Positions 1,902 through 47,634 of a DNA stretch of 64,000 bases are shown here, one piece after another. The position numbers and the translations under genes are program-made. The notes under the pieces were generated by a model. That model was not told the origin of the DNA. It worked only from the letters and a program-made list of their open reading frames with translations, and made no database searches. The stretch covers positions 179,388 through 243,387 of the forward strand of contig CAZRGC010000001.1 of NCBI GenBank assembly GCA_964599625.1, written 5' to 3'. Position 1 is the stretch's first letter, and every line of letters starts with the position of its first letter. The stretch comes from an uncultured Gammaproteobacteria bacterium (GTDB lineage Bacteria > Patescibacteriota > Microgenomatia > UBA8517).

Positions 1902-3968
1902 ATGAAACTTGTCGTTATTCAAAGCTTGCTGTCTCCATACAGGTACCCACTTTTTGATGTATTGTCATATGTTTACGACTTGGAGGTGTGGTTCATGGGT
2001 CGTAGTGTTAAAAATAGAACATGGGACGGTTCCGACATAAAATATCATGTTTTTAAACACAAATTCCTTCAGGGCCTAACTATAAACATTGGCAAAGATG
2101 ATAATTACCCTTTTTGGATAAACTCAGGTATTCCGCTCATGTTAGTCAAAGCAAAGCCGGACGTGTTAGTTTTGTTTGGCTGGGATTCACTCACGTCATT
2201 TCTTGCGGTATTTTTCAGATTTTTATACCACAAAACGAAGATTGTCTTATTTTCCGAAAGCACAAAGTATGAAACAAGTTGGAGAAGGTCTGTAACAAAG
2301 CCTTTGGTGAAAATGCTCTTACGAAAAGTCGACTATTGTTTGGCGGCAGGTAAAAGATCGAAAGATTATTTAATGTCGTTGGGTGTACCCAAAGATAAAA
2401 TTGGCATAGCTCCAACAACAAATGATGTAGACAGATATGTTTTTCTAAAGGATAAATTTTCAAAACAAAGGCATGCCACAAGAACTAATTTGGGTTACCG
2501 CAAAGAAGATATTGTGATTATGTTTTATGGACAACTAATAAAGCGAAAGGGAGTAGATGTCTTGCTTAAGGCTTACAAAGAGCTGGTTAAAAACAACAAC
2601 TTAGCAAAATTGCTGATAATTGGTGATGGAAAAGCGAGGACAGATTTAAACGAATATATAAAATCACAAAACATATCTGGTGTAAAAATATTTCCTAATC
2701 CTGGAGATTTTGAGATCAATAAATATTATGCAGCCTCAGACATTTTTGTGTTGCCGTCGAGAAACGACACCTGGGGTTTGGTAGTAAACGAAGCCATGTG
2801 TGCGGGGCTTCCGGTAATTGTTTCTAACATGGTTGGGTCTGGGAGCGAGCTTGTTAATAAAGGTGTAAACGGTTTTATTTTCAAGTCTGAAGATGTTGAA
2901 GAACTGAAAAGTTATTTAGAAAAACTGATTTCAAGCAAAGAGCTTCGCAGCAAGTTTGGAAAAATGTCTTCGACGATGATACAAAATTTCAGGCCGGAAA
3001 ATACCCTAAAAGGATATATTGATGCTATTAAAAAAGTCACAAAAATTAATTATGGACAACAATATAATCTAAAGTTTTTAAATAAACCAAAAAAGGGATT
3101 GGTATCGGTTGTAATTCCTGTTTACAGCGACCCATCGGGTTTAACTGTTACATTGGAATCTTTAGGGGCAAAAAAGGTAGGCTTAGATAATATTGAAATT
3201 ATTGTTGTAAATGATGGCGGCAATTCCCAGGTGTCGGAGGTGCTTAAAAAATTTGAAGTTAAAGAAGTTGTCCTACAACAAAGAAAAGGATCCTATGGCG
3301 CCAGAAATGCCGGTGTAGAAATTTCTTCTGGAGAAAAAATACTTTTTATAGACGCAGGAGTAATTGCTTCCAAAAATTGGGTCAGTAAAAGTTCAGAAAG
3401 TCTAAACAATTTTGACTATGTTTGTGGACCAATAAACATAGCAAATCATAAAGGTTGGCTGGGAGTATATGAAGCAAACAGGGAATTCCCTGTCAAAGAG
3501 TTTCTGGACGATTTGCATTTTGCCCCAACGGCAAATCTGGGGGTAACCAGGAGGGTTTTGGAAAACTGCGGTGGTTTCGATGCTCGTTTGGAATCTTCGG
3601 GTGATTACGAATTTGGTAACCGTTTGTATTTTCAAGGAGGATATTCTCAGCTTTACGATGCGGAAGTGGTAGTTTTCCACAGCCCAAGAAGTTGGATGGA
3701 GTGGTTTTCAAAACACAGACGTTTAGCAAAAGGTTTTAGAGATCTATCTAGGTATTATCCCGAGCGTTTTTTTGGCGGAAGACTGGCAATTTATAAGTTG
3801 ACCCTAAAGGCGTTTACTCCACCTTTTTGGTTATTTTCAAAAAAAACTTGGAAAATTTTAAATTCCAAAAAAAAGTTGCAGGTTTTTTTGGTTACATACT
3901 TATTCTCTGCCTATCAGCATCTTTATGCAGCCAAATTAACATTTCTGAAGAAACCAACTGATAACTAA
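1902..3968 (+). CDS. Two-domain glycosyltransferase: an N-terminal GT4 (GT-B) domain fused to a C-terminal GT2 (GT-A) domain.
   Basis: The N-terminal half carries the GT4 C-terminal signature 'NEAMCAGLPVIVSNMVGSGSELV'. The C-terminal half starts 'VSVVIPVYSDP...IEIIVVNDGG' with a later 'DAG' DxD-like motif. Confidence 0.8.
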   Translation: MKLVVIQSLLSPYRYPLFDVLSYVYDLEVWFMGRSVKNRTWDGSDIKYHVFKHKFLQGLTINIGKDDNYPFWINSGIPLMLVKAKPDVLVLFGWDSLTSFLAVFFRFLYHKTKIVLFSESTKYETSWRRSVTKPLVKMLLRKVDYCLAAGKRSKDYLMSLGVPKDKIGIAPTTNDVDRYVFLKDKFSKQRHATRTNLGYRKEDIVIMFYGQLIKRKGVDVLLKAYKELVKNNNLAKLLIIGDGKARTDLNEYIKSQNISGVKIFPNPGDFEINKYYAASDIFVLPSRNDTWGLVVNEAMCAGLPVIVSNMVGSGSELVNKGVNGFIFKSEDVEELKSYLEKLISSKELRSKFGKMSSTMIQNFRPENTLKGYIDAIKKVTKINYGQQYNLKFLNKPKKGLVSVVIPVYSDPSGLTVTLESLGAKKVGLDNIEIIVVNDGGNSQVSEVLKKFEVKEVVLQQRKGSYGARNAGVEISSGEKILFIDAGVIASKNWVSKSSESLNNFDYVCGPINIANHKGWLGVYEANREFPVKEFLDDLHFAPTANLGVTRRVLENCGGFDARLESSGDYEFGNRLYFQGGYSQLYDAEVVVFHSPRSWMEWFSKHRRLAKGFRDLSRYYPERFFGGRLAIYKLTLKAFTPPFWLFSKKTWKILNSKKKLQVFLVTYLFSAYQHLYAAKLTFLKKPTDN

Positions 3969-28252: not shown

Positions 28253-30277
28253 ATGGACGATGTTGTCATTCCAAAAATAGATCCCAACAAAAACAAAGCA
28301 GATGCGTCAGTCTTGGTTCCTGAAAATCAAGCTGAGGTTTTGAATCAAGTTAAACCGAATTCACAAACCAATACGACAGTTCCAGAATCCGGTGAAATTT
28401 CCAAAAAACCATTCTCAAAAAACAAAACAATTTGGCTTTCAGTAGGCGCATTATTTCTTGTTTTTATTTTCTACAACCTTGTTGCCATCTATTTGGTATA
28501 CCAAAACGCATTAAAGGTTGTTGACTCAGGAAAAAAACTCCAAACTTATGTGCAAGAGAAGGACCTTGTAAAAATCAAAACTGGACTGGATTCCACCAAA
28601 AAAGAGGTTTTGGGTTTAAGATCAAAAGTGGGTTTACTCAGCTGGGCTAAAATACTTCCTGTCGTAGGCGGTTTCGTAAGTGATGCAGGGCATGGCCTAA
28701 ATGCCGCGGTTGCGGGCATTGATGCGGGCGACGTCGTCATTTCTGCCGCCGCACCTTACTCGGATTTATTGGGACTGGGTGGAACTGAACCAAAAACTTC
28801 CGAACAGTCAACACAAGAAAGAATCGACTTTGTTTTAAAAACAATACCCGATCTGATACCCAAGATAGATGAAATATCCGGCAAAGTTTCAACAGTAAAC
28901 GAAGAGCTTTCAAAAATAGATGCCGAGCGATATCCGGAGAAGTATAAAGGGCAGGTGGTAAGATCAAAAATCAAAACTGTTCAAAGTATTGCTTCGGAGG
29001 TTTCAATGTTTTTGACAAACGGAAAACCCGTTCTTGAGTCGGCACCATATCTTTTGGGAATGGAGTCACCAAGAAACTACCTGATACTTTTCCAAAACGA
29101 CAAAGAACTCCGGCCGACTGGCGGGTTTCTAACTGCCTACGCGATTATGAAAGTTGATAAGGCTAAGTTTGAGCCCGTATCTTCAAATGACATTTACAAC
29201 CTGGATGCACTTTATAAGCCGTCCATTCCGGCACCGGACCCAATTGTTAAATACATTAAAGGTCCGTACATTTTGTCAAAGAATCTGAGGCTAAGGGATA
29301 TGAATTGGTCTCCTGACTTCCCGCAGAGTATGGATATGTTTTCCGCTGCTGCCAAAGAGGCCGGTGTTAAGGGTGTAGACGGAATAATTGCGGTCGACAC
29401 TCATCTTTTGGAAAACATTTTGGATGTAATTGGCCCAATTGGTGTTCCAGGTTTTGGAAACTTCAGTACTGAAATCGATCCGGAATGTAACTGTTCTCAA
29501 GTCATTCATGAATTGGAAAGTTTTGCTGACGTAGAAGGACCTATTGTTTGGGATCCGGTCAGTGGGAAGATTGTCTATAAACCCAAAAATGCGGATAACA
29601 GAAAAAAAATCATAGGACCGCTCATGAATTCAATTTTGGCAAACGCGCTAGGACAGCCTAAAGAAAAGTTGCCGGATCTGGTTGCGGCTGTTTTTACTTC
29701 TCTTATTGAAAAACATGTTTTGTTCTATATAGACGAAGCAAACGTTCAAAAAGCCATGTCAGACTTCGGCCTTGCCGGAAAAGTAAAAGACTACGATGGA
29801 GACTATCTTCATATTAATGACGCAAATCTAGGAGGAAGAAAATCCAACCTTTATGCAACAGAAGAAGTTGAACAAGTAGTAAATGTTGCGAAGGATGGTG
29901 GCGTCACAAAAACTGTAACAATTACATACAAAAATCCTGAAAAACATGATGGCTGGTTGAACTCGGTGCTTCCAACATGGGTAAGAGTTTACGTTCCCAA
30001 GGGAAGTGAGCTTATTGCTGCAGAAGGTTTGGAGACAACCCAGGACCCGTATGAGGATTTGGGTAAGACAGTTTATGCTGGATTTTTTCAACTAAGGCCG
30101 GAAGGTGTTTCAAAGATTACTTTCAAATACAAACTGCCGTTTAAAGTTACAGAAACATACAAGATGCTAATTCAAAAACAACCTGGTACCGATGGGTTTT
30201 TGTATACTGTTAAAGTTGGTAAAAAGCAGGATGAGTTTTTCCTCAAAACAGACAAGGAGATCAAGATTGATCTTTAG
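28253..30277 (+). CDS. Large N-terminally membrane-anchored exported protein, DUF4012-like.
   Basis: It has one TM near residue 60 and an 'ILFQNDKELRPTGGF' motif that I associate with DUF4012 (family name from memory, not verified). Start is at ATG 28253, 21 nt inside the TTG-initiated ORF. Confidence 0.5.
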   Translation: MDDVVIPKIDPNKNKADASVLVPENQAEVLNQVKPNSQTNTTVPESGEISKKPFSKNKTIWLSVGALFLVFIFYNLVAIYLVYQNALKVVDSGKKLQTYVQEKDLVKIKTGLDSTKKEVLGLRSKVGLLSWAKILPVVGGFVSDAGHGLNAAVAGIDAGDVVISAAAPYSDLLGLGGTEPKTSEQSTQERIDFVLKTIPDLIPKIDEISGKVSTVNEELSKIDAERYPEKYKGQVVRSKIKTVQSIASEVSMFLTNGKPVLESAPYLLGMESPRNYLILFQNDKELRPTGGFLTAYAIMKVDKAKFEPVSSNDIYNLDALYKPSIPAPDPIVKYIKGPYILSKNLRLRDMNWSPDFPQSMDMFSAAAKEAGVKGVDGIIAVDTHLLENILDVIGPIGVPGFGNFSTEIDPECNCSQVIHELESFADVEGPIVWDPVSGKIVYKPKNADNRKKIIGPLMNSILANALGQPKEKLPDLVAAVFTSLIEKHVLFYIDEANVQKAMSDFGLAGKVKDYDGDYLHINDANLGGRKSNLYATEEVEQVVNVAKDGGVTKTVTITYKNPEKHDGWLNSVLPTWVRVYVPKGSELIAAEGLETTQDPYEDLGKTVYAGFFQLRPEGVSKITFKYKLPFKVTETYKMLIQKQPGTDGFLYTVKVGKKQDEFFLKTDKEIKIDL

Positions 30278-30280
30278 TCT

Positions 30281-30289
30281 TGATATAAT
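30281..30289 (+). promoter_or_regulatory. Extended -10 element TGnTATAAT placed so that transcription would start at or next to the recO ATG (possible leaderless mRNA).
   Basis: 'tgatataat' sits 6 nt upstream of the ATG at 30296 and no SD sequence lies between them. Confidence 0.35.
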
Positions 30290-30295
30290 GGCCTA

Positions 30296-30841
30296 ATGAG
30301 TTTAATGACCTATACTTCTAGGGGCGTTGTGTTGTTCACAAGAGATATCGGAGAGGCCGACAGGGTAGTGACCATATTCTCAGACAAATTTGGTAAAAAA
30401 GCACTTTTGGCAAAAGGGGTTCGTAAACTTTCAAGCAGAAAACGGGGACACCTGAAACCGTTCAACTGTGTAACTTTTACTGCAGTATCCGGAAAGTCGA
30501 TGGATTTGATAACAGAAACAACATCATTGAATGAATTTGGAGTAATTGGGACAAGTTTAAACAAAATGACTTTAGCATTTTATATATGTGAAATAGTTGC
30601 AAAAACCACCAATGAAGGGGAACCAAACAGTGAAGTTTTTGACCATTTGATGTCGACCCTAAGTAGGATAGAGGCTTCAAAAAAGCTTAAGGAAGTAAGA
30701 TTAGATTTTGTTGTCGGCCTCCTTGAGATTTTGGGTTACATTCCAAAAAACGAGGTTTTTGGCGACCCCTTCGTTCTATTAGAAAACGTCATCGAGAAAC
30801 AGGTATATTCCGAAAGAGTAGGAAAAAGGGTGTTACAATAA
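30296..30841 (+). CDS. recO: DNA repair protein RecO, a short form lacking the C-terminal zinc-binding region.
   Basis: It has the N-terminal OB-fold region 'SRGVVLFTRDIGEADRVVTIFSDKFGKKALLAKGVRK'. It is 181 aa and has no CxxC pairs. Confidence 0.75.
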   Translation: MSLMTYTSRGVVLFTRDIGEADRVVTIFSDKFGKKALLAKGVRKLSSRKRGHLKPFNCVTFTAVSGKSMDLITETTSLNEFGVIGTSLNKMTLAFYICEIVAKTTNEGEPNSEVFDHLMSTLSRIEASKKLKEVRLDFVVGLLEILGYIPKNEVFGDPFVLLENVIEKQVYSERVGKRVLQ

Positions 30842-30853
30842 AACAACTCCGGT

Positions 30854-31579
30854 ATGGAAAATATTTTGTCGGTAAAAAATCTCACAGTAAAATTTAATTC
30901 TCACAAAGTGCTGGACGATGTCACGTTTGACGTCGAAAGAGATTCTACTATTGCCATAATTGGCCCCAACGGAGCCGGTAAATCTGTGCTTTTTAAAGCA
31001 TTGCTTGGACTTGTGGAATATGATGGTGATGTTGAGTGGGCCAAGGATATAAAAATAGGCTATGTTCCACAAAAACTTTCTTTACCAAAAGATTTGCCGC
31101 TTACCGTACTTGAATTTTTAAGTTTTAAGGAAAAAAGTAAAGAAGTTATTTTAGCGACTTTAAGATCCGTCGGCTTTTTGGAAACTTCCGTTCACCCCCA
31201 CAATGACAAGCGGGTTCTCAATACAAAAGTAGGAAATCTATCCGGGGGCGAGTTGCAAAGAGTGCTTATTGCTTACGCACTACTGGGCGACCCAAACATT
31301 TTGCTTTTCGACGAACCGACTGCGGGTGTTGATGTTGGCGGAGAAGAAACTGTTTATGGCCTAATTCATAAGTTACAAAAAGATGACGACCTCACAATAA
31401 TTTTCATATCCCACGAATTACAAGTTGTCTACCATTATGCTGACACAGTTCTATGTCTTAACAAAGAAAAAATATGTTACGGACCACCTGTTGATGTTAT
31501 TGACAGATCAGCACTCAAAAAGATGTATGGTGAAAAGGTAATGATGTACAAACATCACGATCATAGTCATGGACAATAA
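30854..31579 (+). CDS. znuC: Metal (Zn/Mn) ABC transporter ATP-binding protein.
   Basis: It has Walker A 'GPNGAGKS', the signature 'LSGGELQRV', Walker B 'LLLFDEPTAGVD' and a His-rich C-terminus 'YKHHDHSHGQ'. Confidence 0.8.
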   Translation: MENILSVKNLTVKFNSHKVLDDVTFDVERDSTIAIIGPNGAGKSVLFKALLGLVEYDGDVEWAKDIKIGYVPQKLSLPKDLPLTVLEFLSFKEKSKEVILATLRSVGFLETSVHPHNDKRVLNTKVGNLSGGELQRVLIAYALLGDPNILLFDEPTAGVDVGGEETVYGLIHKLQKDDDLTIIFISHELQVVYHYADTVLCLNKEKICYGPPVDVIDRSALKKMYGEKVMMYKHHDHSHGQ

Positions 31580-32336
31580 TTTACTAATACTGGCTATTGT
31601 TGGAACTTTTGTCGGGGCTTCCTCGGGATATTTGGGAAGTTTTATGGTTCTCAAGCGTATGTCTTTGGTTGGTGACGCCTTGAGCCATGTTGCCTTACCG
31701 GGAATAGCGGTCGCCCTGACATTTGGAATAAATCCCATGCTGGGTGCTTTTGTTGCACTTTTTCTTGCGACATTTGCAATATGGTATTTATCCGAAAATT
31801 CGGAGATATATCCTGAAGCGCTGGTTGGCGTCTTTTTTACTGCAAGCCTTTCTTTGGGTCTTTTGATTACACCAGAGCCGGAGCTCCTTGAGGCTTTGTT
31901 TGGAGACATTGATAAAATTAACGGAGTTGACGCGCTGTTTGTAGTCCTTGGAAGTATTTTGATATTTACCATAACACATAGAATTTCTAAAAAACTTATT
32001 CTGGGTGTTGTATCAGAGGATTTGGCAAGATCTCAGGGGATAAGCACTTCTAAGATAAATCTTGTTTATCTGTTAATGGTTTCCTTGGCTGTTACTATTG
32101 GTGTCAAATTTTTAGGAACACTTTTGACGGGGGCTTTGGTGATTATACCGGCTGTTACCGCAAAGAACCTTTCTGAAAGTATCAAATCTTTCCAGATTGT
32201 TGCCGTTTTTACAGGTATAATATCTGCACTTTTTGGAATAGTGATTTCGAAATTTTTTGGAATATCTTCGGGTCCTGCCATAATACTTACTTCTGTTGCA
32301 CTCTTTGCTTTTAGTTACCTTTACAAAAGAAACTAG
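31569..32336 (+). CDS. znuB: Metal ABC transporter permease (ABC-3 family).
   Basis: An 8-TM protein adjacent to and overlapping the ATPase gene, with the typical 'GDALSHVALPGIAVA' motif. Confidence 0.8.
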   Translation: MDNNLLILAIVGTFVGASSGYLGSFMVLKRMSLVGDALSHVALPGIAVALTFGINPMLGAFVALFLATFAIWYLSENSEIYPEALVGVFFTASLSLGLLITPEPELLEALFGDIDKINGVDALFVVLGSILIFTITHRISKKLILGVVSEDLARSQGISTSKINLVYLLMVSLAVTIGVKFLGTLLTGALVIIPAVTAKNLSESIKSFQIVAVFTGIISALFGIVISKFFGISSGPAIILTSVALFAFSYLYKRN

Positions 32337-32386
32337 CTTGCTTCTTTTTTACTGCTTATATAAAATCAATACACTATTTTTTTGAA

Positions 32387-32992
32387 ATGTTTGAAGTTTT
32401 TTTTGATACAGAGACAAAAAAGTTTTTCGATGAAATTGCTACAAACGACCCGGCGCTTTTGGGTGTTTCCATAACCTCGGTTTATTGGCGCAAGCTCGAC
32501 AGCGATTTAAAACAGATAGAAGGAGGTATGGTAAGTTTTTGGGAAAAGGATTTTGACGAGATGTTTAAACTTTTTGAAAAAGCGGACAGGATTGTGGGTT
32601 TTAATTCATTAACCTTTGACATTCCGGCATTGTCACCATATCTTCCGGCGCATTGGCCCAAACTCAAGCATTTTGATATTTTGGATGAACTAAAAAAAGC
32701 CGAAGGCAAACGAGCCTCTTTGGACGCAATCGCAAAAGCAACACTTCAGTCAGCAAAAAACGACTCAGGTGAGAACGCAGTTAAATACTGGAATGCAGGT
32801 GACCCTGAATCATTGGCCAAACTTCAAAAGTATTGCGAAATGGATGTTGCCATAACGAGAGATGTTTATGACCACGTTGTTTATAAAGGTTTTTTAAAAT
32901 ACAAAGATTATTGGAATGAGATACACGAAGTAAAGTTAGATTTTTCATATCCCAAAAATTCAGAGTCCAACATTCAGACAAGTTTGTTTTAA
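32387..32992 (+). CDS. DEDDy-type 3'-5' exonuclease (RNase H-like fold).
   Basis: It has Exo I 'FFDTET', Exo II 'VGFNSLTFDIPAL' and Exo III 'YCEMDVAITRDVYDH' (Y-x3-D). Confidence 0.6.
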   Translation: MFEVFFDTETKKFFDEIATNDPALLGVSITSVYWRKLDSDLKQIEGGMVSFWEKDFDEMFKLFEKADRIVGFNSLTFDIPALSPYLPAHWPKLKHFDILDELKKAEGKRASLDAIAKATLQSAKNDSGENAVKYWNAGDPESLAKLQKYCEMDVAITRDVYDHVVYKGFLKYKDYWNEIHEVKLDFSYPKNSESNIQTSLF

Positions 32993-33002
32993 TATTTTAT
33001 TA

Positions 33003-33389
33003 ATGGATTTTAAAAAAACAAAAAAAGAATTAACAAAGGAGCAATACAACGTCTGCTTTCTCAAAGGAACTGAGCCGCCCGGCTCCGGTAAATATCTTCA
33101 CAATAACGAGACCGGAACATACAACTGTACCGTTTGTGGCCAGAAATTGTTTGAGTCAGAAACAAAATACGATTCAGGTACCGGTTGGCCTTCTTTTTGG
33201 GACATGGCAGACAGTGGTGCTATCAAAAAAGAAGTTGACAACTCTCACGGAATGACACGAACAGAAGTTTTGTGTTCAAAATGCGGATCGCATTTGGGAC
33301 ATGTTTTTGACGACGGACCGCAAGACAAAACCGGTTTACGATATTGTATCAACTCGCTTTCTTTAGAGTTCACTAAAAAAACTGAATAA
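33003..33389 (+). CDS. msrB: Peptide-methionine (R)-S-oxide reductase.
   Basis: It has the zinc-site CxxC pairs 'CTVCGQ' and 'CSKCGS' and the signature 'HLGHVFDDGP...RYCINS'. Confidence 0.9.
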   Translation: MDFKKTKKELTKEQYNVCFLKGTEPPGSGKYLHNNETGTYNCTVCGQKLFESETKYDSGTGWPSFWDMADSGAIKKEVDNSHGMTRTEVLCSKCGSHLGHVFDDGPQDKTGLRYCINSLSLEFTKKTE

Positions 33390-33390
33390 C

Positions 33391-34224
33391 ATGCAAAAAG
33401 ACAAATATAAGGCGACTTGGGTTTCCCACTCTTCTATATCTGATTTTTTAAAGTGCCCCAGACTTTATTTTTTGAGAAATGTTTACAAAGACCCAAAAAC
33501 AGGGAACAAAATGACTATCACTTCCCCACCTTTGGTTTTGGGACAGGCAGTCCACGAAGTAGTTGAATCTTTGTCATCTTTGCCGGCGGAAGAAAGATTG
33601 AAAATATCTCTTATCAAAAAGTTTGATCTTGGGTGGACAAAATTTGTCGGCAAGAAGGGTGGGTTCAAAAATCATACCGAAGAAGTTGAATACAGAGACA
33701 GAGGTGTTGCCATGTTAAGAACTATTGAAGAAAATCCTGGGCCGATACTCAGAAAAGCAATTAAAATAAAATCTGAGATGGGGCTGCCTAACTATTTTAT
33801 TTCTGAAGAAGATAATATAATCCTTTGCGGAAAAATTGACTGGTTGGAATATTTGGAGGATCTGGACGGCGTTCATATCGTAGACTTTAAAACAGGAAAA
33901 AATGAGGAAAGTGACGATTCACTTCAGCTCCCGATTTACTTGTTAATTGCATCCAACACTCAGTCCAAAAAAGTGGCAAAAGCAAGCTACTGGTATCTGG
34001 AAAAGGGTGGGGATCTGACCGCAAAAAACTTACCCACGGCTACCGATGCGTTTGAAAAAGTTATCACAGTCGCAAGGAGAATAAAACTTGCAAGGCAAAT
34101 AAATCATATGAAATGTCCCAGTGGAGGATGTTTTGCCTGTAGGCCATATGAACGAATATTAAACGGCGAAGGGGAGAAAGTAGGTGTTAGTGAAACCCGG
34201 CAAGATGTTTATATACTGCCCTAA
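33391..34224 (+). CDS. RecB-family PD-(D/E)XK nuclease with a 4-Cys Fe-S cluster (Cas4-like, stand-alone).
   Basis: It has motif II 'GKIDWL', motif III 'IVDFK', the 'QLPIY' (QhxxY) motif, an N-terminal Cys ('LKCPRL') and a C-terminal 'CPSGGCFAC' (C-x5-C-x2-C). It starts 1 nt after the msrB stop. Confidence 0.7.
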   Translation: MQKDKYKATWVSHSSISDFLKCPRLYFLRNVYKDPKTGNKMTITSPPLVLGQAVHEVVESLSSLPAEERLKISLIKKFDLGWTKFVGKKGGFKNHTEEVEYRDRGVAMLRTIEENPGPILRKAIKIKSEMGLPNYFISEEDNIILCGKIDWLEYLEDLDGVHIVDFKTGKNEESDDSLQLPIYLLIASNTQSKKVAKASYWYLEKGGDLTAKNLPTATDAFEKVITVARRIKLARQINHMKCPSGGCFACRPYERILNGEGEKVGVSETRQDVYILP

Positions 34225-34505
34225 GAACTTCTGAATGGTTGTGTTGTGAACCATACTTTTTGATCCAGGATTTTACTGTCGACAATATGATTTTTGCCTT
34301 TTCTCGGGTAAACCAGGTCGATTTGATGATTCTCCACAAAAAAGTTTTTGTGCCCAATTACCTGGCCTCTTAAGACAAAATTGCCGATCCTGGTTTTATC
34401 ATTACCGACAAACACAGGTTTCCTGCAGGTCTCGCAGTAGGCGACCACATTGTCGCCTGGTTCAAGTTCAAAGTAGGGAATTTCTGCTGGCTCTCGTTCA
34501 TTCAT
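34221..34505 (-). CDS. Hypothetical small protein (94 aa) with one CxxC pair.
   Basis: A conserved-looking ORF ('CETC') that converges on and overlaps the nuclease gene by 4 nt. It is the last gene of the minus-strand LCP-msrA operon. Confidence 0.4.
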   Translation of the reverse strand: MNEREPAEIPYFELEPGDNVVAYCETCRKPVFVGNDKTRIGNFVLRGQVIGHKNFFVENHQIDLVYPRKGKNHIVDSKILDQKVWFTTQPFRSS

Positions 34506-34524
34506 GGCGGTAATTCTAACACAC

Positions 34525-35046
34525 TTACTTAGTTATCTGGGAAAATTCTTTTTTTAGTTTCTCTATTTTTGGATCTATGACAATGCGACAATATGCGTTG
34601 GATCTGTTTTTAAAGTAGTAATCTTTATGTTCCGGTTCTGCCGGGAAAAAATTCTTATATTTTGTAATTTCGGTTACAACTTGATTTTTATAGTCATTGG
34701 AAATTTCACTTTTAATTTTTTCTGCAACCTTTCTTTGCTCTTCATCAACGTAAAAGATTGCAGACCTGTACTGAGTGCCAATATCTGCCCCTTGCCTGTT
34801 TAACTCTGTTGGGTCGTGTAGTTTGAAAAACACCCTAAGGATATCTTCGAGTTTAATTATATTGGGGTTGAAGGTTACAAAAACACACTCTGCATGGTTG
34901 GTCTCACCGGAGGCCACCTGGTAATACCCTGGGTTTTGAATATCACCCCCGGAATACCCGGGTATTGCGTCAATAACACCTTTTAGTGATTTAAATATAG
35001 CTTCTGTACACCAGAAACACCCGCCGGCGAGAATTATATTTTCCAT
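34525..35046 (-). CDS. msrA: Peptide-methionine (S)-S-oxide reductase.
   Basis: It has the N-terminal active site 'GGCFWC'. Confidence 0.9.
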   Translation of the reverse strand: MENIILAGGCFWCTEAIFKSLKGVIDAIPGYSGGDIQNPGYYQVASGETNHAECVFVTFNPNIIKLEDILRVFFKLHDPTELNRQGADIGTQYRSAIFYVDEEQRKVAEKIKSEISNDYKNQVVTEITKYKNFFPAEPEHKDYYFKNRSNAYCRIVIDPKIEKLKKEFSQITK

Positions 35047-35048
35047 TT

Positions 35049-35699
35049 TTATCCGTTGACTCTTGATGAATAAGTAAACATAAATTTTTTAATTGAATTT
35101 CCTTGTTCAGTATTAAAGATTGTAAGGCCTTTGTCGTTTTTATCGGCTATCGGACTTTGGTATTCTGGACCATTAAGACTTCTTTCAACCGCATAAGGAT
35201 CCGGCCAACTGCCACCGTCTCTGTGAGTAATATAGTTTATAACTTTTTCCAATGTGGGCTCAGCTATTATTTTTAGTGCATAATAATCACTTTTTGAAGT
35301 GTTGTGGTTTCCAGGCGAAGCTGCATACCAGATACCGTCAACACTCTCCATAACCACATATGTGTGATAAAAAAGTGTTCCTTGTCTGCCAACTATCATT
35401 CTAGACACATTTGAAGATTGTGGTAAATCATAAGACGTCATCAAAAACATTTTTTTATATGTTTCCGGGAATCTTGTTGCTAAAACATATGCAGCATCGA
35501 TAGATGAGCGTTCGCAAGTACCCTTAGATGCTTCATGAATTGCTTTATTTAAAGCTCTTGTTTTGAAAAATCTTGGTGATGTAACAGGATTTTCCTTAAG
35601 GTGCTCATTGATATTTGCCGCATAAGCTATGGCAACAGCTTCCGAAAACGCCGCAAGAGGTGTTGCTTTTTGATTTTCGGGAGCGTTTTTTGATTCCAT
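35049..35699 (-). CDS. Hypothetical protein with a candidate Cys/His thiol-hydrolase-like arrangement.
   Basis: It has no TM. A 'GTCERSS' Cys lies about 50 residues before 'FYHTYVVMESVDG'. Its start overlaps the LCP stop by 1 nt. Confidence 0.4.
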   Translation of the reverse strand: MESKNAPENQKATPLAAFSEAVAIAYAANINEHLKENPVTSPRFFKTRALNKAIHEASKGTCERSSIDAAYVLATRFPETYKKMFLMTSYDLPQSSNVSRMIVGRQGTLFYHTYVVMESVDGIWYAASPGNHNTSKSDYYALKIIAEPTLEKVINYITHRDGGSWPDPYAVERSLNGPEYQSPIADKNDKGLTIFNTEQGNSIKKFMFTYSSRVNG

Positions 35700-36826
35700 T
35701 AAATGTTGGTTTTGATATAAGTTTTGACTTCGGAAAAGTTAAGGTTTCCTGCTTTTGGCATAAGTATAAATTGACCGTCAGAACTTTTTCCGGAAACAAG
35801 CACGTTTTCTGTAGTAATTTGCACTCTTTTTATAGTGTAGGCTCTGGGGTCGCCAAAATCTGATATTAAAGTTTTAATTACCCCGATATTAATATCGGTT
35901 TTAACCATTTTGGATAGTGTGTCAATTATTTCATCAAGTTTTCCGGCACTTTGGGCAGATGTCAGTTTTGTAAGAATACCTTCCAGTATTGCAAACTGTC
36001 TCAAGCTTCTGCCAAAATCGCTGTCACCATGGCGGGATCTTGATAATTTGAGAGCTGTTGTCCCGTTTACTTTGGTTGGACCTTTTCCATAACTTAATGT
36101 CTCGTATCTGCATTTAAACTGAGTCTCGAGTGCATAACCAGTGTATTTGGTTTTTAAGGTCTCTATTTCTTGTGCAGTAAATCCGCAGGTGTTATTTTCC
36201 TGTCCGGCGATGGGGTAGAAAGGGTCTTCGAACGCGACCGGAATATTTACCTCGATACCGCCAAGGCTGTCTATTAATTTTACAAAATTGCCAAAATCTA
36301 TGGAAACATAATAATTGATCGGAATCCCCGTGACACTTTGGACAACCCCTCCCACGTTTTGATAACCAACCTGCACCCCGACTGAATTTATTTTGTGATT
36401 TCCCGTAACCCACAGATCTCTTGGTATTGATATTAACCCGACCGACTTTTTACCGGTGTCAACATTAATCACTATTATGCTATCTGTTAAGGCCCCTCCT
36501 GAATGTCCGGACCCTCCATGACCCAAAAGCAAAAAGTTGTATACACCTTTTTGGGGATTAACTTCGTTTACCGGTGCGGGTGTAGCCTCGTTAAACGGTT
36601 GCATTACGTTTTCGTCATTTGGCACCGGAGTAGGTTTTACGTATATTTTTGACAACTTAAGCCCAAGATAAGAAACATAGAAACCAAGGATGAATATCCC
36701 GGTAAGTAAAACACCTATTTGGAGATCTTGAAGATTGATTTTAATTCTCATTGAATAATTAGTAATTATACTCGTACAAATAACAAAATGCCTCGCATCT
36801 GGGTGGAAAGAATAACTATATTGCAA
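35699..36826 (-). CDS. LCP (LytR-CpsA-Psr) family protein, a glycopolymer-to-peptidoglycan phosphotransferase.
   Basis: It has an N-terminal TM and 'LLLGHGGSGHSGGALTDSIIVINVDTGKKSVGLISIPRD'. Confidence 0.8.
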   Translation of the reverse strand: MQYSYSFHPDARHFVICTSIITNYSMRIKINLQDLQIGVLLTGIFILGFYVSYLGLKLSKIYVKPTPVPNDENVMQPFNEATPAPVNEVNPQKGVYNFLLLGHGGSGHSGGALTDSIIVINVDTGKKSVGLISIPRDLWVTGNHKINSVGVQVGYQNVGGVVQSVTGIPINYYVSIDFGNFVKLIDSLGGIEVNIPVAFEDPFYPIAGQENNTCGFTAQEIETLKTKYTGYALETQFKCRYETLSYGKGPTKVNGTTALKLSRSRHGDSDFGRSLRQFAILEGILTKLTSAQSAGKLDEIIDTLSKMVKTDINIGVIKTLISDFGDPRAYTIKRVQITTENVLVSGKSSDGQFILMPKAGNLNFSEVKTYIKTNI

Positions 36827-36838
36827 TATAATTGACCC

Positions 36839-38215
36839 ATGGCAGATTTGATGGAAAAAGTGGTGGCACTTGCAAAACGAAGAGGTTTTGTTTTTCCAAC
36901 ATCCGAAATTTACGGAGGATTGGCAAATTCCTACGATTACGGTCCTGCGGGTAGTGAGCTTCTCAGAAACATTAGAAACATTTGGTGGAAGAATTTTGTA
37001 AATGACCGGGAAGATATGGTAGGCCTTGATTCGCAGATACTTCTACATCCGGAAACTTGGGTTGCGTCCGGACATGTCGGCGGATTTTCTGACCCAATGG
37101 TTGAAGATTTGGTAACTCACAAAAGATACCGGGTGGATCATCTCATTGAACCCACTTTATCCAAAGATGATAAAGTGGTCGAAGACATGACCTTGGATGA
37201 AATGGCTGATTACATCAAGTTAAACAAGGTAAAAAGTCCGGACGGTAACGATTTGGGCGAGGTGAAACAGTTTAATTTACTTTTTGAGACTGGTATCGGA
37301 ACAGTTGGCGGAGACAAGTCTAAAGTATATTTGAGGGGGGAAACTGCACAGGGAATATTTACAGACTTCAAACAGGTTTTGGATTCTTCAAGGGTTAAAT
37401 TACCCTTTGGTGTGGGGCAAATCGGTAAGAGTTTCCGAAACGAAATCACAACGGGGCAATTTATATTTAGAACACTGGAGTTGGAACAGGCCGAGATTGA
37501 ATATTTCTTTGATCCTGAAACTACTGACTGGGAAAGAATTATGAATGAGTGGAAAGAGTCTATGATAAGTTTTGTTACCGAAACACTTGGTGTCAAAAAA
37601 GAAAACATACAATGGAGGAGGCATACCGACAAAGAACGCAGTTTTTATAGCAAAGACACTTATGATTTGGATTACAAATTCCCATTTGGTTGGAAGGAAT
37701 TATGGGGAATTGCCTACAGAACAGACTACGACCTAAAGCAGCACATGGAGCACTCCGGAATGAGTCTGGAATATACAGACCCTTCCACGGGACGCAAGTT
37801 TGTTCCGCATGTTATAGAACCTGCTGTAGGGGTAAACAGGATCTTTTTGATGCTTCTTTGTGATGCATATTCGGAAGAAGAAGGGCGTGTGGTTTTAAAA
37901 CTAAATCCAAGGGTTGCCCCATATAAAGTTGCCGTATTTCCGCTTCTTGCAAACAAACTTGAGTTGGTGGCAAAGGCAAGGGAAGTTTATTCGCAACTGA
38001 AGTCAGACCTTGTGGTTTTGTGGGACGACAGGGGCAATATCGGAAAAAGATATTTTGCTCAGGATGAACTCGGTACTCCGTGGTGTGTAACTGTTGACTT
38101 TGAAACACTTAATGACAGATCGGTAACAGTAAGAGATCGAGACACAATGAAACAGGAAAGAGTGGCCATTGACAAGTTGAACGATTATTTCCAAAATAAA
38201 CTTAAGAAAGTTTGA
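36839..38215 (+). CDS. glyQS: Glycine--tRNA ligase, dimeric alpha2 type.
   Basis: It has the N-terminus 'RRGFVFPTSEIYGGLANSYDYGPAGSELLRNIRNIWW' and class II motifs. Confidence 0.9.
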   Translation: MADLMEKVVALAKRRGFVFPTSEIYGGLANSYDYGPAGSELLRNIRNIWWKNFVNDREDMVGLDSQILLHPETWVASGHVGGFSDPMVEDLVTHKRYRVDHLIEPTLSKDDKVVEDMTLDEMADYIKLNKVKSPDGNDLGEVKQFNLLFETGIGTVGGDKSKVYLRGETAQGIFTDFKQVLDSSRVKLPFGVGQIGKSFRNEITTGQFIFRTLELEQAEIEYFFDPETTDWERIMNEWKESMISFVTETLGVKKENIQWRRHTDKERSFYSKDTYDLDYKFPFGWKELWGIAYRTDYDLKQHMEHSGMSLEYTDPSTGRKFVPHVIEPAVGVNRIFLMLLCDAYSEEEGRVVLKLNPRVAPYKVAVFPLLANKLELVAKAREVYSQLKSDLVVLWDDRGNIGKRYFAQDELGTPWCVTVDFETLNDRSVTVRDRDTMKQERVAIDKLNDYFQNKLKKV

Positions 38216-45098: not shown

Positions 45099-45593
45099 TT
45101 ACAACTTTTTTCTCATATACAAAACCCCATCTGTTTGTTTTTTAGCCTTAAACCCTAGGATTTTGTAGACTTTTTTGGCAACCATGTTTTTTGAATTTAC
45201 AGACAACCAAATGCCTGGAGATTCTGCTTCTCTAAAGCGTGTGGTTGTGGTAAATGATTTTATGGCTTCACTCAAAAATATTTTCGAGTATCCTTTCCCC
45301 CTCCCTGATTTATAGATCCTTATTGCCACGGAAAACCTGTAGTCAGGAAATTCGGGCGTAGTTTTTTCCGAAAACCAGGCTATGCCCAACAAATTATCCG
45401 ATTTGTCTGTAAGGGTGTAAATAATTTTATTTTTTTGCCACCTCTTGAAAGTGGTCTTATTTTTAAAACGTACGGTGTCTCTGGTGAACTTTTTAATCAA
45501 AAGATCTGACTTTGATTCTTGAATTAAGTAGGCAATTTGATTATCAGTTATACCCGGTTTGAATATGGTTTCGGGGTCGTTTTGGGCTTGCAT
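45099..45593 (-). CDS. GNAT family N-acetyltransferase.
   Basis: It has motif A 'IYKSGRGKGYSKIFLSEAI' and is 164 aa. It is the only antisense gene inside the dcw cluster. Confidence 0.6.
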   Translation of the reverse strand: MQAQNDPETIFKPGITDNQIAYLIQESKSDLLIKKFTRDTVRFKNKTTFKRWQKNKIIYTLTDKSDNLLGIAWFSEKTTPEFPDYRFSVAIRIYKSGRGKGYSKIFLSEAIKSFTTTTRFREAESPGIWLSVNSKNMVAKKVYKILGFKAKKQTDGVLYMRKKL

Positions 45594-45612
45594 TTGCTAT
45601 AATATAGCACGA

Positions 45613-47634
45613 ATGTTTACTGACGTTTCTGATTTGTGTCAAAAAATATCTAACTTTTCTGGCTTGACCGAAGATTCAAGGAAGGTAAGAAAGAACTACA
45701 TTTTTGTGGCAGTTAAGGGAAAGACCACCGACGGCCACGCTCACATAGGTGATGCACTAGAAAGGGGTGCCTCACTTGTTATATGTGAACAAAAACCAAA
45801 CACTTTCAATGGTAATTTCTTAAAGGTGGATGATTCACGTGTTGCTTTGTCTCAGGTTGCGGCCGCGTTTTACGGCTACCCTTCGAGGAATTTGAGGATC
45901 GTCGGTGTGACTGGAACAAAAGGAAAAACTACGACTTCCCACATGATTTATCATATTTTGCAGAAAACCGAAGGTAACACCGGACTCATTTCGACCATAG
46001 TTGCCAAAATAGGAGGAAAAGACTTTGGTACAGGGTTTCATGTAACAAGTCCTGATGTAATAACTTTAAATAAATTCCTCAGAGAGATGGTTGATGCTGG
46101 TTGCAAGTATTGTGTGTTGGAAGTTTCTTCCCATGGAATTGATCAAAAACGCATTTCAGGCATAGATTTTGAAGTTGGTGTTGTTACTAATATAGCACCG
46201 GAACATCTGGACTATCATGGAACTTACAAAGAGTATAAGAGGGTCAAAATGAGTTTTGTTAATTCTGCAAAAAACAAAGTAGTAATGCCAAAAGAAACAG
46301 ATATAAATATCTTTCCCGGAAAATTCAATAATCTCGACGCCGAGTCTGCGGTAAATGCTGTTTCGTTTTTGGGAATTGACCGCAAGACCTCACTTGAGGC
46401 ATTGGAAAGTTTCGAATTACCAGAAGGGAGACTCCAGAGGGTGGAAAACAGTTTGGGTATTGATATTTTTATTGATTTTGCACATACACCTGACTCCTTA
46501 GAGGCGGCATTGACATATTTCAAAAGCATAACCTCTGGAAGGTTGATTTCTGTATTTGGGTGCGCTGGTGAGAGAGATGTAAAAAAACGCAGGAAAATGG
46601 GGAGAATTTCTGAAAATATTTCAGATTATTCGATATTTACAGCAGAAGACCCAAGGCGAGAAAATTTAACTGACATTTTTGCACTAATGAAGAAAGATGC
46701 TAAAAATTTTATTTGTATTCCTGAACGTGGGGAAGCGATTGCATATGCATTATCATATGCAAAAAGGGGCGATACGGTTGTTTTTTTGGGAAAGGGTCAT
46801 GAGTCAAGTATGGCATATAAAGGGTTTGAACACCCATGGAGTGATAAAGAAGAAATTAATAACTTTTTATCTCGGGACGAGAGTGTTTCGGCAATTGTTC
46901 TTGCTGCAGGCAGAGGTTCTAGGATGAAGTCTTCTAAACCCAAGATTTTGCATGAAATATGCGGTAGGCCAATGATTTCGTATAGTTTGCAGAATTTAAG
47001 GAGGGCTGGAGTTGGCGAGATAATAGCTGTTGTTTCTTACAGGAAAAATCTGGTGATCAATGCAATTAAGGGTGAAGTGAAAACTGCTTTCCAAAAAAAC
47101 CCTAAGGGCGGAACTGGGGATGCTGCACGCGTTGGTATGAGTAAGGTCTCAGAAAAAGCCAAATCCGTTATGGTTCTTTATGGAGATGATACAGCTTTCT
47201 ATTCACCCGATACAATTTCAAAAGTAATTAAGAACCATCATAGTAACCGAGCTGTGATCACATTCATAACTCTTACAAAAGAAAATCCTTACGGACTTGG
47301 TAGGATTGTTAGGAACAGAAACGGCGACTTGGTAAAAATAGTGGAGGAAAAAGATGCCAACGAAGAAGAGAAGAAGATTTCCGAGGTAAATGATGGTCTG
47401 TATGTTTTTGATAGAAATTGGTTTGAGGAAAACGTTACTAAGATAAACCCCAGCATGGTAACCAGGGAATTGTATATAGTTGATCTTATCAAAATGGCGA
47501 TTGAACAAAATAAGAAGGTTACTGCTTACCGGCTGCCTACCGATATTGAATGGCAAGGTGTAAATACACCAGCAGAGTTGGAAAAGGCAAAAGAAAAAAT
47601 GGAAGAACGTCTCAAGGTTTTTTCTAATGGTTAA
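45613..47634 (+). CDS. murE: Fusion protein: MurE (UDP-MurNAc-L-Ala-D-Glu:diamino acid ligase) followed by the GlmU N-terminal uridyltransferase domain (GlcNAc-1-P uridyltransferase) with no LbH acetyltransferase domain.
   Basis: Residues ~1-430 carry the Mur ligase motifs ('VGVTGTKGKTTTSHMI', 'DFAHTPDSLEAAL'). Residues ~440-674 carry 'AIVLAAGRGSRMKSSKPKILHEICGRPM' and 'VLYGDD', closely matching the GlmU N-terminal domain. Start is at ATG 45613, 54 nt inside the annotated ORF. Confidence 0.8.
   Translation: MFTDVSDLCQKISNFSGLTEDSRKVRKNYIFVAVKGKTTDGHAHIGDALERGASLVICEQKPNTFNGNFLKVDDSRVALSQVAAAFYGYPSRNLRIVGVTGTKGKTTTSHMIYHILQKTEGNTGLISTIVAKIGGKDFGTGFHVTSPDVITLNKFLREMVDAGCKYCVLEVSSHGIDQKRISGIDFEVGVVTNIAPEHLDYHGTYKEYKRVKMSFVNSAKNKVVMPKETDINIFPGKFNNLDAESAVNAVSFLGIDRKTSLEALESFELPEGRLQRVENSLGIDIFIDFAHTPDSLEAALTYFKSITSGRLISVFGCAGERDVKKRRKMGRISENISDYSIFTAEDPRRENLTDIFALMKKDAKNFICIPERGEAIAYALSYAKRGDTVVFLGKGHESSMAYKGFEHPWSDKEEINNFLSRDESVSAIVLAAGRGSRMKSSKPKILHEICGRPMISYSLQNLRRAGVGEIIAVVSYRKNLVINAIKGEVKTAFQKNPKGGTGDAARVGMSKVSEKAKSVMVLYGDDTAFYSPDTISKVIKNHHSNRAVITFITLTKENPYGLGRIVRNRNGDLVKIVEEKDANEEEKKISEVNDGLYVFDRNWFEENVTKINPSMVTRELYIVDLIKMAIEQNKKVTAYRLPTDIEWQGVNTPAELEKAKEKMEERLKVFSNG

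Follow-up and report, generated by a model that had tools for sequence, protein, structure and literature searches.

Solo Cas4-family nucleases are enriched in bacteria from the candidate phyla radiation (CPR; Patescibacteria), and to our knowledge none of these CPR enzymes has been characterised. Here we describe the gene for such a nuclease at 33391-34224 (+) of a 64-kb stretch of contig CAZRGC010000001.1, the whole of which we call the window, where it follows the genes for a predicted DEDDy 3′–5′ exonuclease (32387-32992, +) and for the methionine-(R)-sulfoxide reductase MsrB (33003-33389, +). Stand-alone Cas4-family genes of CPR bacteria have been described as vertically inherited and of unknown function, with a PF12705 branch that has no CRISPR association (Hudaiberdiev et al. 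2017, PMC5704561). The window nuclease resembles that solo-Cas4/PF12705 group in being a stand-alone RecB-like PD-(D/E)XK nuclease with one N-terminal and three C-terminal cysteines, and further in lying outside CRISPR-cas loci, in belonging to a small-genome host and in being vertically inherited. The locus is another instance of the stand-alone Cas4-family nucleases known in CPR since 2017, and no new kind of system.

Among other described relatives, ACE1 is an Argonaute-associated Cas4 family enzyme and a 4Fe-4S endonuclease of single-stranded DNA (ssDNA) (PMC12094033); it differs in being co-encoded with a long-A prokaryotic Argonaute (pAgo) in cyanobacteria, and is only 17–20% identical to the window nuclease. 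The nuclease domains of AdnA/AdnB, AddB and Dna2 are parts of large helicase-nucleases, whereas the window nuclease is free-standing and has no helicase neighbour. The exonuclease is comparable to the predicted 3′–5′ exonucleases of PF13482/PF10108 (COG3298/COG3359, which include the MrfB/YprB group; Majorek et al. 2014, PMC3985635), as it passes both models, has a PolB-exonuclease-like fold and is single-domain. MrfB, however, is a DEDDh enzyme with TPR repeats that pairs with the MrfA helicase, whereas the window exonuclease is a DEDDy protein of 201 aa without a helicase partner. Literature searches returned nothing on Cas4-like nucleases in Patescibacteria, and, among the papers listed, none from CPR on RecBCD, AddAB or RecJ.

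On balance, we lean towards reading the two nucleases as ordinary, vertically inherited housekeeping DNA-repair enzymes that lie in a decaying ancestral neighbourhood with an incidental MsrB, and not as part of a dedicated three-gene system. Modestly new are the degree of conservation, the lack of a constant partner, the partial and orientation-independent linkage of nuclease and exonuclease, the repair cluster that surrounds them in one lineage and, it appears, the cysteine spacing of the nuclease.

The nuclease belongs to a compact, strongly conserved stand-alone family

The 277-aa nuclease matched PDDEXK_1 (PF12705) over residues 11–244 (E = 2.6e-22; 80.4 bits, cutoff 22). It fell below the cutoffs for Cas4 proper, with 18.4 versus 22.7 bits for PF01930 and 42.6 versus 65 for TIGR00372, the C-terminal half alone aligning. 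Its RecB-type active site, D...DxK...QxxxY, is made up of D150, D165-x-K167 and Q179-x3-Y183. Among 31 family members, with identities down to 25%, all of these residues were invariant, as were C22, G51 and C250, and C242 and C247 were about 90% conserved. The DxK[TS] and QxxxY motifs were present in 45 of 47 full-length representatives.

The conserved cysteines are the N-terminal C22 and a C-terminal C242-x4-C247-x2-C250. Cas4, AddB and Dna2 have the canonical arrangement C...C-x2-C-x5-C; the window family differs from it, with C-x(4-9)-C-x2-C in 33 of the 47 full-length representatives and C-x2-C-x5-C in five of the most distant members. As the third C-terminal cysteine lies upstream of the CxxC in most members, one Fe-S ligand appears to have been moved, giving a spacing that looks permuted relative to the Cas4/AddB/Dna2 pattern. 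The original prediction of an intact four-cysteine cluster was right about four family-conserved cysteines in a Cas4-like architecture, but not about their spacing, which is C-x4-C-x2-C and not C-x5-C-x2-C. Presumably, an Fe-S ‘iron staple’ ties C22 to C242, C247 and C250.

The AlphaFold2 model of the nuclease was confident (pLDDT 91), and fold comparison identified ACE1 as its nearest solved structure. Further structural matches were to the nuclease domains of Dna2 (score 15.3) and AdnA (14.8; profile E = 5e-7 over nearly the whole length, positions 9–248), the putative exonuclease 3L0A (13.1), RecE (12.2), type I-C Cas4 (11.7) and the Cas4 protein SSO0001 (9.8; profile 3e-4). The Foldseek ranking agreed with this order.

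An exhaustive HMMER search of 1.84 billion cluster representatives returned 400 matches at E ≤ 1e-3 and 58 at E ≤ 1e-30. The family is abundant, with 6298 clusters at 90% identity from sources named Patescibacteria, Woesebacteria or Microgenomates, and its members are all stand-alone proteins of about 275–290 aa. This is a compact and very strongly conserved family of stand-alone Cas4-family nucleases. As a separate observation, one family representative, P0246 (378 aa), is otherwise a normal member but by eye has a GIY-YIG-like segment (approximately residues 160–250, ...YVLKCSDGSFYIGQTENYEKRLKEH...) apparently inserted between nuclease motifs II and III.

The resemblance to AdnA raises the question of whether a helicase-nuclease of the AddB/AdnA type has been split, with this protein as its detached C-terminal nuclease domain and a UvrD-like helicase encoded elsewhere, an alternative raised with the original prediction. 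The family profile aligns with the AdnA nuclease domain across positions 9–248, and there are structural matches to AdnA, AddB and AddA. ACE1 and Dna2, however, match equally well or better than AdnA, and every member is of stand-alone size. In addition, UvrD/AddA helicase motifs I and II were found in none of 1267 neighbouring ORFs (open reading frames) from 84 loci, and no helicase family recurred among the nuclease neighbours in those loci. We consider a split helicase-nuclease the least probable of the explanations weighed here.

The nuclease has no CRISPR or defence context

ACE1 is a defence accessory nuclease, and PADLOC gave weak matches of the window nuclease to its Cas4 and Aga_Cas4-like_Nuc models. 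Both observations would fit an anti-phage or anti-plasmid nuclease pair, like Argonaute-associated ACE1 or the solo-Cas4 genes found beside restriction–modification (R-M) genes in DPANN archaea. The surroundings argue strongly the other way. There was no cas, Argonaute, R-M or other PADLOC system among the 60 window ORFs, and none of these in the neighbours of approximately 160 related loci; the exonuclease had no PADLOC match. The window contained no Argonaute-sized unassigned ORF or PADLOC Ago match, and none recurred in related loci. Nor did it contain a tRNA, an Rfam family (CRISPR repeats included) or a CRISPR-like tandem array; the predicted lack of a CRISPR-Cas context thus holds for the 64 kb, and no cas gene or CRISPR recurred among neighbours in 84 related loci. 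Finally, G+C is even across the window, and the nuclease gene shows conserved housekeeping synteny and vertical inheritance with 57–84% identity across classes, unlike patchy and fast-evolving defence genes. The defence role floated in the original prediction is thus very unlikely.

A few PADLOC matches in the window were discarded or left aside. Those to mad3, mad8 and AriA all came from a generic ABC ATPase at 30854-31579, and a mad2 match was not traced to an ORF.

The upstream gene encodes a PolB-like DEDDy exonuclease

The 201-aa exonuclease matched RNase_H_2 (PF13482; 7e-13, 49.3 bits versus a cutoff of 22) and DNA_pol_B_exo2 (PF10108; 1e-9, 38.7 bits versus 24). The Exo I (DxE), Exo II (D) and Exo III (Yx3D) residues are present, with D7, E9, D78, Y149 and D153 invariant in an alignment of 31 homologs, and the Y-x3-D form of Exo III places the protein in the DEDDy group. 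A phmmer search against PDB sequences gave no match, and the protein was placed by fold comparison only: its AlphaFold2 model (pLDDT 87) had as best Foldseek matches the exonuclease (proofreading) domains of African swine fever virus (ASFV) PolB and of Pol delta (TM 0.57–0.61), followed by RNase T. We therefore predict a two-metal DEDDy 3′–5′ exonuclease with a PolB-proofreading-like fold. The third protein, the 128-aa MsrB, matched SelR (4e-52) and reached an equivalog score for TIGR00357 (174.2 bits, cutoff 113); it has zinc CxxC pairs C42/C45 and C91/C94, and a catalytic C115 in RYCINS. Pfam and NCBIfam models, conserved residues and folds thus bear out all three gene identities first proposed, and the fold searches suggested at the time place the nuclease with ACE1, Dna2, AdnA and Cas4 and the exonuclease with PolB exonuclease domains and RNase T.

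In two contexts a Y-family polymerase gene (DinB/IMS; L098:8798-10606 and L101:8371-10609) immediately, or almost immediately, precedes that of the exonuclease. In such a position the exonuclease could act as a trans-acting proofreader for translesion synthesis.

The three-gene order is restricted to the window species and one relative

The ORFs of the three genes agree with the coordinates first given for them, all on the plus strand, and they are real genes and no chance ORFs: the database has 6298 and 904 relatives of ≥70% identity, from many Patescibacteria assemblies. The gap between exonuclease and msrB is 10 nt, and that between msrB and nuclease is 1 nt, as predicted (...GAA TAA C ATG). 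From this packing the original prediction proposed an operon. The three genes are indeed co-directional, and form the tail of an 11-gene co-directional string with sugar transferases, DUF4012, RecO and an ABC transporter. Their gaps, however, are uninformative about an operon because the 46 co-directional adjacent gene pairs in the window have a median gap of −1 nt, with 31 of the 46 at ≤10 nt. A scan of 30000-37000 for promoters and terminators gave counts that did not differ from those in shuffled sequence.

To place the locus among its relatives we surveyed one genome per GTDB species, centred on the nuclease. A relative of the nuclease was carried by 392 genomes, and the best 80 loci, at 57–84% identity, came from Woese-, Levyi-, Roizman-, Shapiro- and Magasanik-bacteria and Paceibacterota. 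A hidden Markov model (HMM) of the exonuclease found it as a neighbour at 23 of 84 nuclease loci. Counting as informative those loci with at least 5 kb on both sides of the nuclease (n = 50 among the close relatives), the exonuclease was within 5 kb in 19, and 18 of these 19 belong to one syntenic block, which we call context A. Its backbone reads DUF4012-RecO-(metal ABC transporter, in either orientation)-exonuclease-[variable]-nuclease-[variable]-LytR-GlyRS-orf221-MraZ.

Within this block the spacing of the two nucleases is loose. The distance from exonuclease start to nuclease start is 1004–1017 nt only in the window species and in locus L009 (84% identity); in the other 18 genomes it is 1650–2443 nt, and in L093, where six genes intervene, it reaches 3.8 kb. 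In 18 of 19 same-block relatives the two are kept apart by ≥1 kb of genes unrelated to them, such as those for membrane proteins and an opposite-strand cupin; the number of such genes ranges from one to six across the other relatives, and some are on the minus strand. The order exonuclease-msrB-nuclease was found only in the window species and in L009. The operon as proposed is thus a rare arrangement; what recurs elsewhere, in other arrangements, is the exonuclease-nuclease pair.

Both nucleases are strikingly constrained. Median identity across the 19 genomes was 72% for the exonuclease and 68% for the nuclease, more than for GlyRS (51%), MraZ (52%), LytR (54%) or RecO (45%) in the same genomes.

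Two further observations concern the block. Many of the GTDB-collection records, including L009, L021, L023, L026 and L028-L030, are titled ‘uncultured Gammaproteobacteria/Pseudomonadales bacterium’; their loci are syntenic with, and 57–84% identical to, Woesebacteria/Microgenomates genes, so these titles look taxonomically wrong. At the transporter position, an ATPase and an ABC-3 permease (30854-32336, +) are all that the window has of a Znu/Mnt-type metal transporter, the binding protein and regulator being missing there; in L005:59-2834 and L093:5123-7911, Fur-ZnuA-ZnuC-ZnuB is encoded on the opposite strand and runs divergently from the exonuclease.

The msr genes occupy variable slots

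The intervals 32992-33391 and 34224-35699 are variable slots inside an otherwise rigid backbone, and the same slots are seen in L005, L007, L010 and L093. Among relatives they are filled by msrB, a cupin gene on the opposite strand, genes for membrane or secreted proteins, msrA, TspO, small ORFs, or nothing. In the window the downstream slot holds, all on the minus strand, a conserved hypothetical 94-aa ORF (34221-34505) convergent with the nuclease, its stop codon overlapping that of the nuclease by 4 nt; msrA (34525-35046; methionine-(S)-sulfoxide reductase, PMSR 1.6e-60), at the position originally predicted; and a conserved hypothetical protein of 216 aa (35049-35699). LytR follows on the same strand, and then GlyRS on the plus strand. 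The 94-aa ORF carries a CxxC and has tblastn matches of 62% in L009 and 33% in L010, with no Pfam, NCBIfam or PADLOC match. The 216-aa protein is conserved in L009 (67%), likewise without a match in these three libraries.

The abutment of msrB and nuclease, with msrA 300 nt downstream on the other strand, had suggested a shared oxidative-stress regulon in which MsrB and MsrA protect, or are co-regulated with, an oxidation-sensitive Fe-S nuclease. Several relatives do have msrB after the exonuclease and msrA after the nuclease. Nonetheless msrB occurs in only 5, and msrA beside the nuclease in only 8, of about 80 related loci, the slots otherwise holding a cupin, membrane proteins or nothing, and only the window and L009 have msrB directly beside the nuclease. 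Of the 21 loci with a 271-aa membrane-protein gene (c6), most, the msrB-bearing L005, L027 and L033 among them, have it directly upstream of the nuclease; only the window, L009 and a few other loci lack it. Because this gene is upstream of the nuclease even where msrB is present, its absence in the window and L009 is a derived deletion, and judging from these gene orders msrB was brought up against the nuclease by the loss of two membrane-protein genes from between them in a recent ancestor of the window species and L009. We considered the 271-aa ORF and a 204-aa ORF found between msrB and nuclease in relatives as missing partners and set them aside, since inspection by eye suggests a membrane protein and a secreted protein carrying an N-terminal hydrophobic anchor.

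Also against a regulon, we saw no regulator or conserved upstream site, msrA is convergent and so cannot share a transcript with the nuclease, and the nuclease is equally conserved in lineages that have no msr gene nearby. Since the msr genes are variable and the adjacency is derived, comparison gives no support to an msrB-nuclease or Msr-regulon link; there is very little to recommend the regulon, and MsrB and MsrA are unrelated protein-repair enzymes that are incidental neighbours of the nucleases.

The two nucleases recur together in a second context

In the majority of other lineages the nuclease has no nearby exonuclease and no constant partner. Its surroundings there include an O-antigen-ligase-like gene with an FNR-like reductase, RluB/acyltransferase/polysaccharide deacetylase/IleRS/FtsW, MFS/PrmC, and singleton contexts; its 138 remaining neighbours fall into 131 Pfam families, none present in more than two loci. 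For a distant nuclease subfamily we sampled 80 metagenome loci, 21 of them informative. The exonuclease was within 5 kb in one of the 21, and three other loci of the 80 have it 2.4–4.3 kb away, always on the opposite strand. Outside the context-A block, then, the exonuclease is near the nuclease in 2 of 53 informative loci, where about 1% would be expected by chance in a 1-Mb genome.

We initially treated the linkage as pure block synteny, and set this aside when exonuclease-centred look-ups showed the pair adjacent in a second, unrelated context. In this context E (L096-L100), five exonuclease homologs from a second lineage all have a nuclease ortholog beside them. The two genes are convergent and abut, their ORFs overlapping by 4 nt, in four loci (L097-L100), and are separated by one gene in L096; exonuclease and nuclease are each 54% identical to those of the window. 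The surroundings comprise RecX, RecA, DinB (IMS), RarA/MgsA, an SPL-like radical-SAM enzyme, a DNA-alkylation-repair protein, MGMT, GIY-YIG and a DEAD helicase. This dense repair cluster, which also has a beta-CASP nuclease, lies within 20 kb in one Microgenomates lineage (for example, L097:1780-20606).

Several of these observations weigh against the housekeeping reading. When the 17 genes of a 20-kb context-E neighbourhood were compared with the 64-kb window, only the exonuclease and the nuclease had matches, at 54% each, and the pair recurs with different flanks in Shapirobacteria L084, where the order is exonuclease → ←101 aa ←LigT-like, nuclease → RluB → and none of the context-A flanks is present. 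A pair shared in this way suggests something beyond passive synteny, and speaks for a genuine functional pairing rather than simple co-residence. Furthermore, the three genes may be co-transcribed in the window genome, and PF13482 exonuclease domains occur fused to DUF83/Cas4-like domains in COG2251 (PMC3985635). Such COG2251/TM0106-type proteins hold the same two domain types in one chain, a ‘Rosetta-stone’ hint at joint action, whereas in the window the domains are in separate genes that are not always adjacent.

These points give some room to an alternative in which the exonuclease and the Cas4-like nuclease are a genuine two-enzyme DNA-end-processing module, 3′–5′ plus 5′–3′ or endonucleolytic, that would be a split counterpart of COG2251 for RecA/RecFOR-dependent repair in reduced genomes, with MsrB incidental. 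Three arrangements keep the two genes no more than about 2.5 kb apart: co-directional in context A, exonuclease-x-x-nuclease in L084, and convergent in context E. Both enzymes are unusually conserved and have diverged equally between the two lineages while all other neighbours differ, and in context E DinB is their neighbour in a cluster of repair genes. Against this, no exonuclease was found within 5 kb in 31 of the 50 close-relative loci or in 20 of the 21 distant-subfamily loci, and outside context A the pair is close to its chance expectation. The two genes keep no fixed orientation, and other, unrelated genes have been inserted freely between them, so co-regulation of exonuclease and nuclease has not been maintained. 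The linkage of the nuclease to an unrelated gene, that for an RluB-like pseudouridine synthase, recurs to a comparable degree, and exonuclease locus L101 has DinB and LigT with no nuclease within 10 kb. There was no exonuclease-nuclease fusion among 150 nuclease family representatives, and neither nuclease matched the TM0106-type family in a search of the whole NCBIfam library at E up to 10. We regard the module as the chief rival of the housekeeping reading, possible but doubtful.

Overall, proximity of the two genes recurs in two or three arrangements, beyond chance, yet has been lost in most lineages. The housekeeping reading is favoured because of that loss, because orientation is not kept and insertions are tolerated, because the RluB-like gene is similarly linked, and because 2 of 53 is near chance. 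Under it the two nucleases most likely both work in chromosomal DNA repair or recombination, as the original prediction had plausibly suggested; they are probably loosely linked, through an ancestral neighbourhood, in part of the Microgenomates, and they may act together on DNA ends. Co-transcription of the two is not obligatory.

Other genes of the window

The rest of the window is consistent with this picture. Apart from genes for making polysaccharides, it encodes RecO, LytR, GlyRS and a metal ABC transporter, and its dcw cluster extends as far as FtsZ and IleRS. The stretch as a whole is housekeeping DNA, from the compact, Microgenomates/Woesebacteria-like (CPR/Patescibacteria) genome of a tiny-genome, groundwater-type bacterium. 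RecO (30296-30841, +; RecO_N 2.5e-20, RecO_C 1.2e-11) lies approximately 2 kb upstream of the exonuclease-nuclease pair, in the same co-directional string and in the conserved backbone. Between RecO and the exonuclease are the metal-type ABC transporter ATPase (ABC_tran 5e-24) and ABC-3 permease (1.3e-53).

Two fusions were noted in passing. In the dcw cluster, a 691-aa protein (45559-47634, +) has all three domains of a complete Mur ligase (N, M and C) and, C-terminal to them, an NTP_transferase/MobA-like nucleotidyltransferase, an unusual-looking fusion, and at 1902-3968 (+) a 688-aa protein has fused GT1 (group 1) and GT2 glycosyltransferase domains, with a weak match to the ‘GT4-conflict’ Pfam family.

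Discussion

How the two housekeeping nucleases would act can be sketched from their relatives. Cas4 has been reported as a 5′–3′ exonuclease (PMC3466216). By analogy with ACE1, Cas4 and the Dna2 and AdnA nuclease domains, the window nuclease would cleave ssDNA or 5′ tails in a metal-dependent manner, and its putative Fe-S cluster would have a structural part, stapling the N-terminus to the C-terminus. The exonuclease would trim 3′ ends by two-metal catalysis. Together or separately, the two could process ends, gaps or flaps for RecO/RecA.

A bolder version of joint action is that the pair forms a Microgenomates-wide, near-essential two-nuclease system for end resection or gap processing, a split analogue of the COG2251 fusions that replaces RecBCD/AddAB/RecJ in such minimal genomes and feeds RecO/RecA, with Fe-S ligands permuted relative to all characterised Cas4, AddB and Dna2. 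We think this improbable, though well short of negligible.

CPR/Patescibacteria have very small genomes, and DNA-end processing for recombination is poorly understood in them. The nuclease family is among the most conserved genes of its neighbourhood while lacking any partner helicase, cas gene or Argonaute. Exonuclease and nuclease are therefore reasonable candidates for biochemistry on a minimal recombination-repair machinery.

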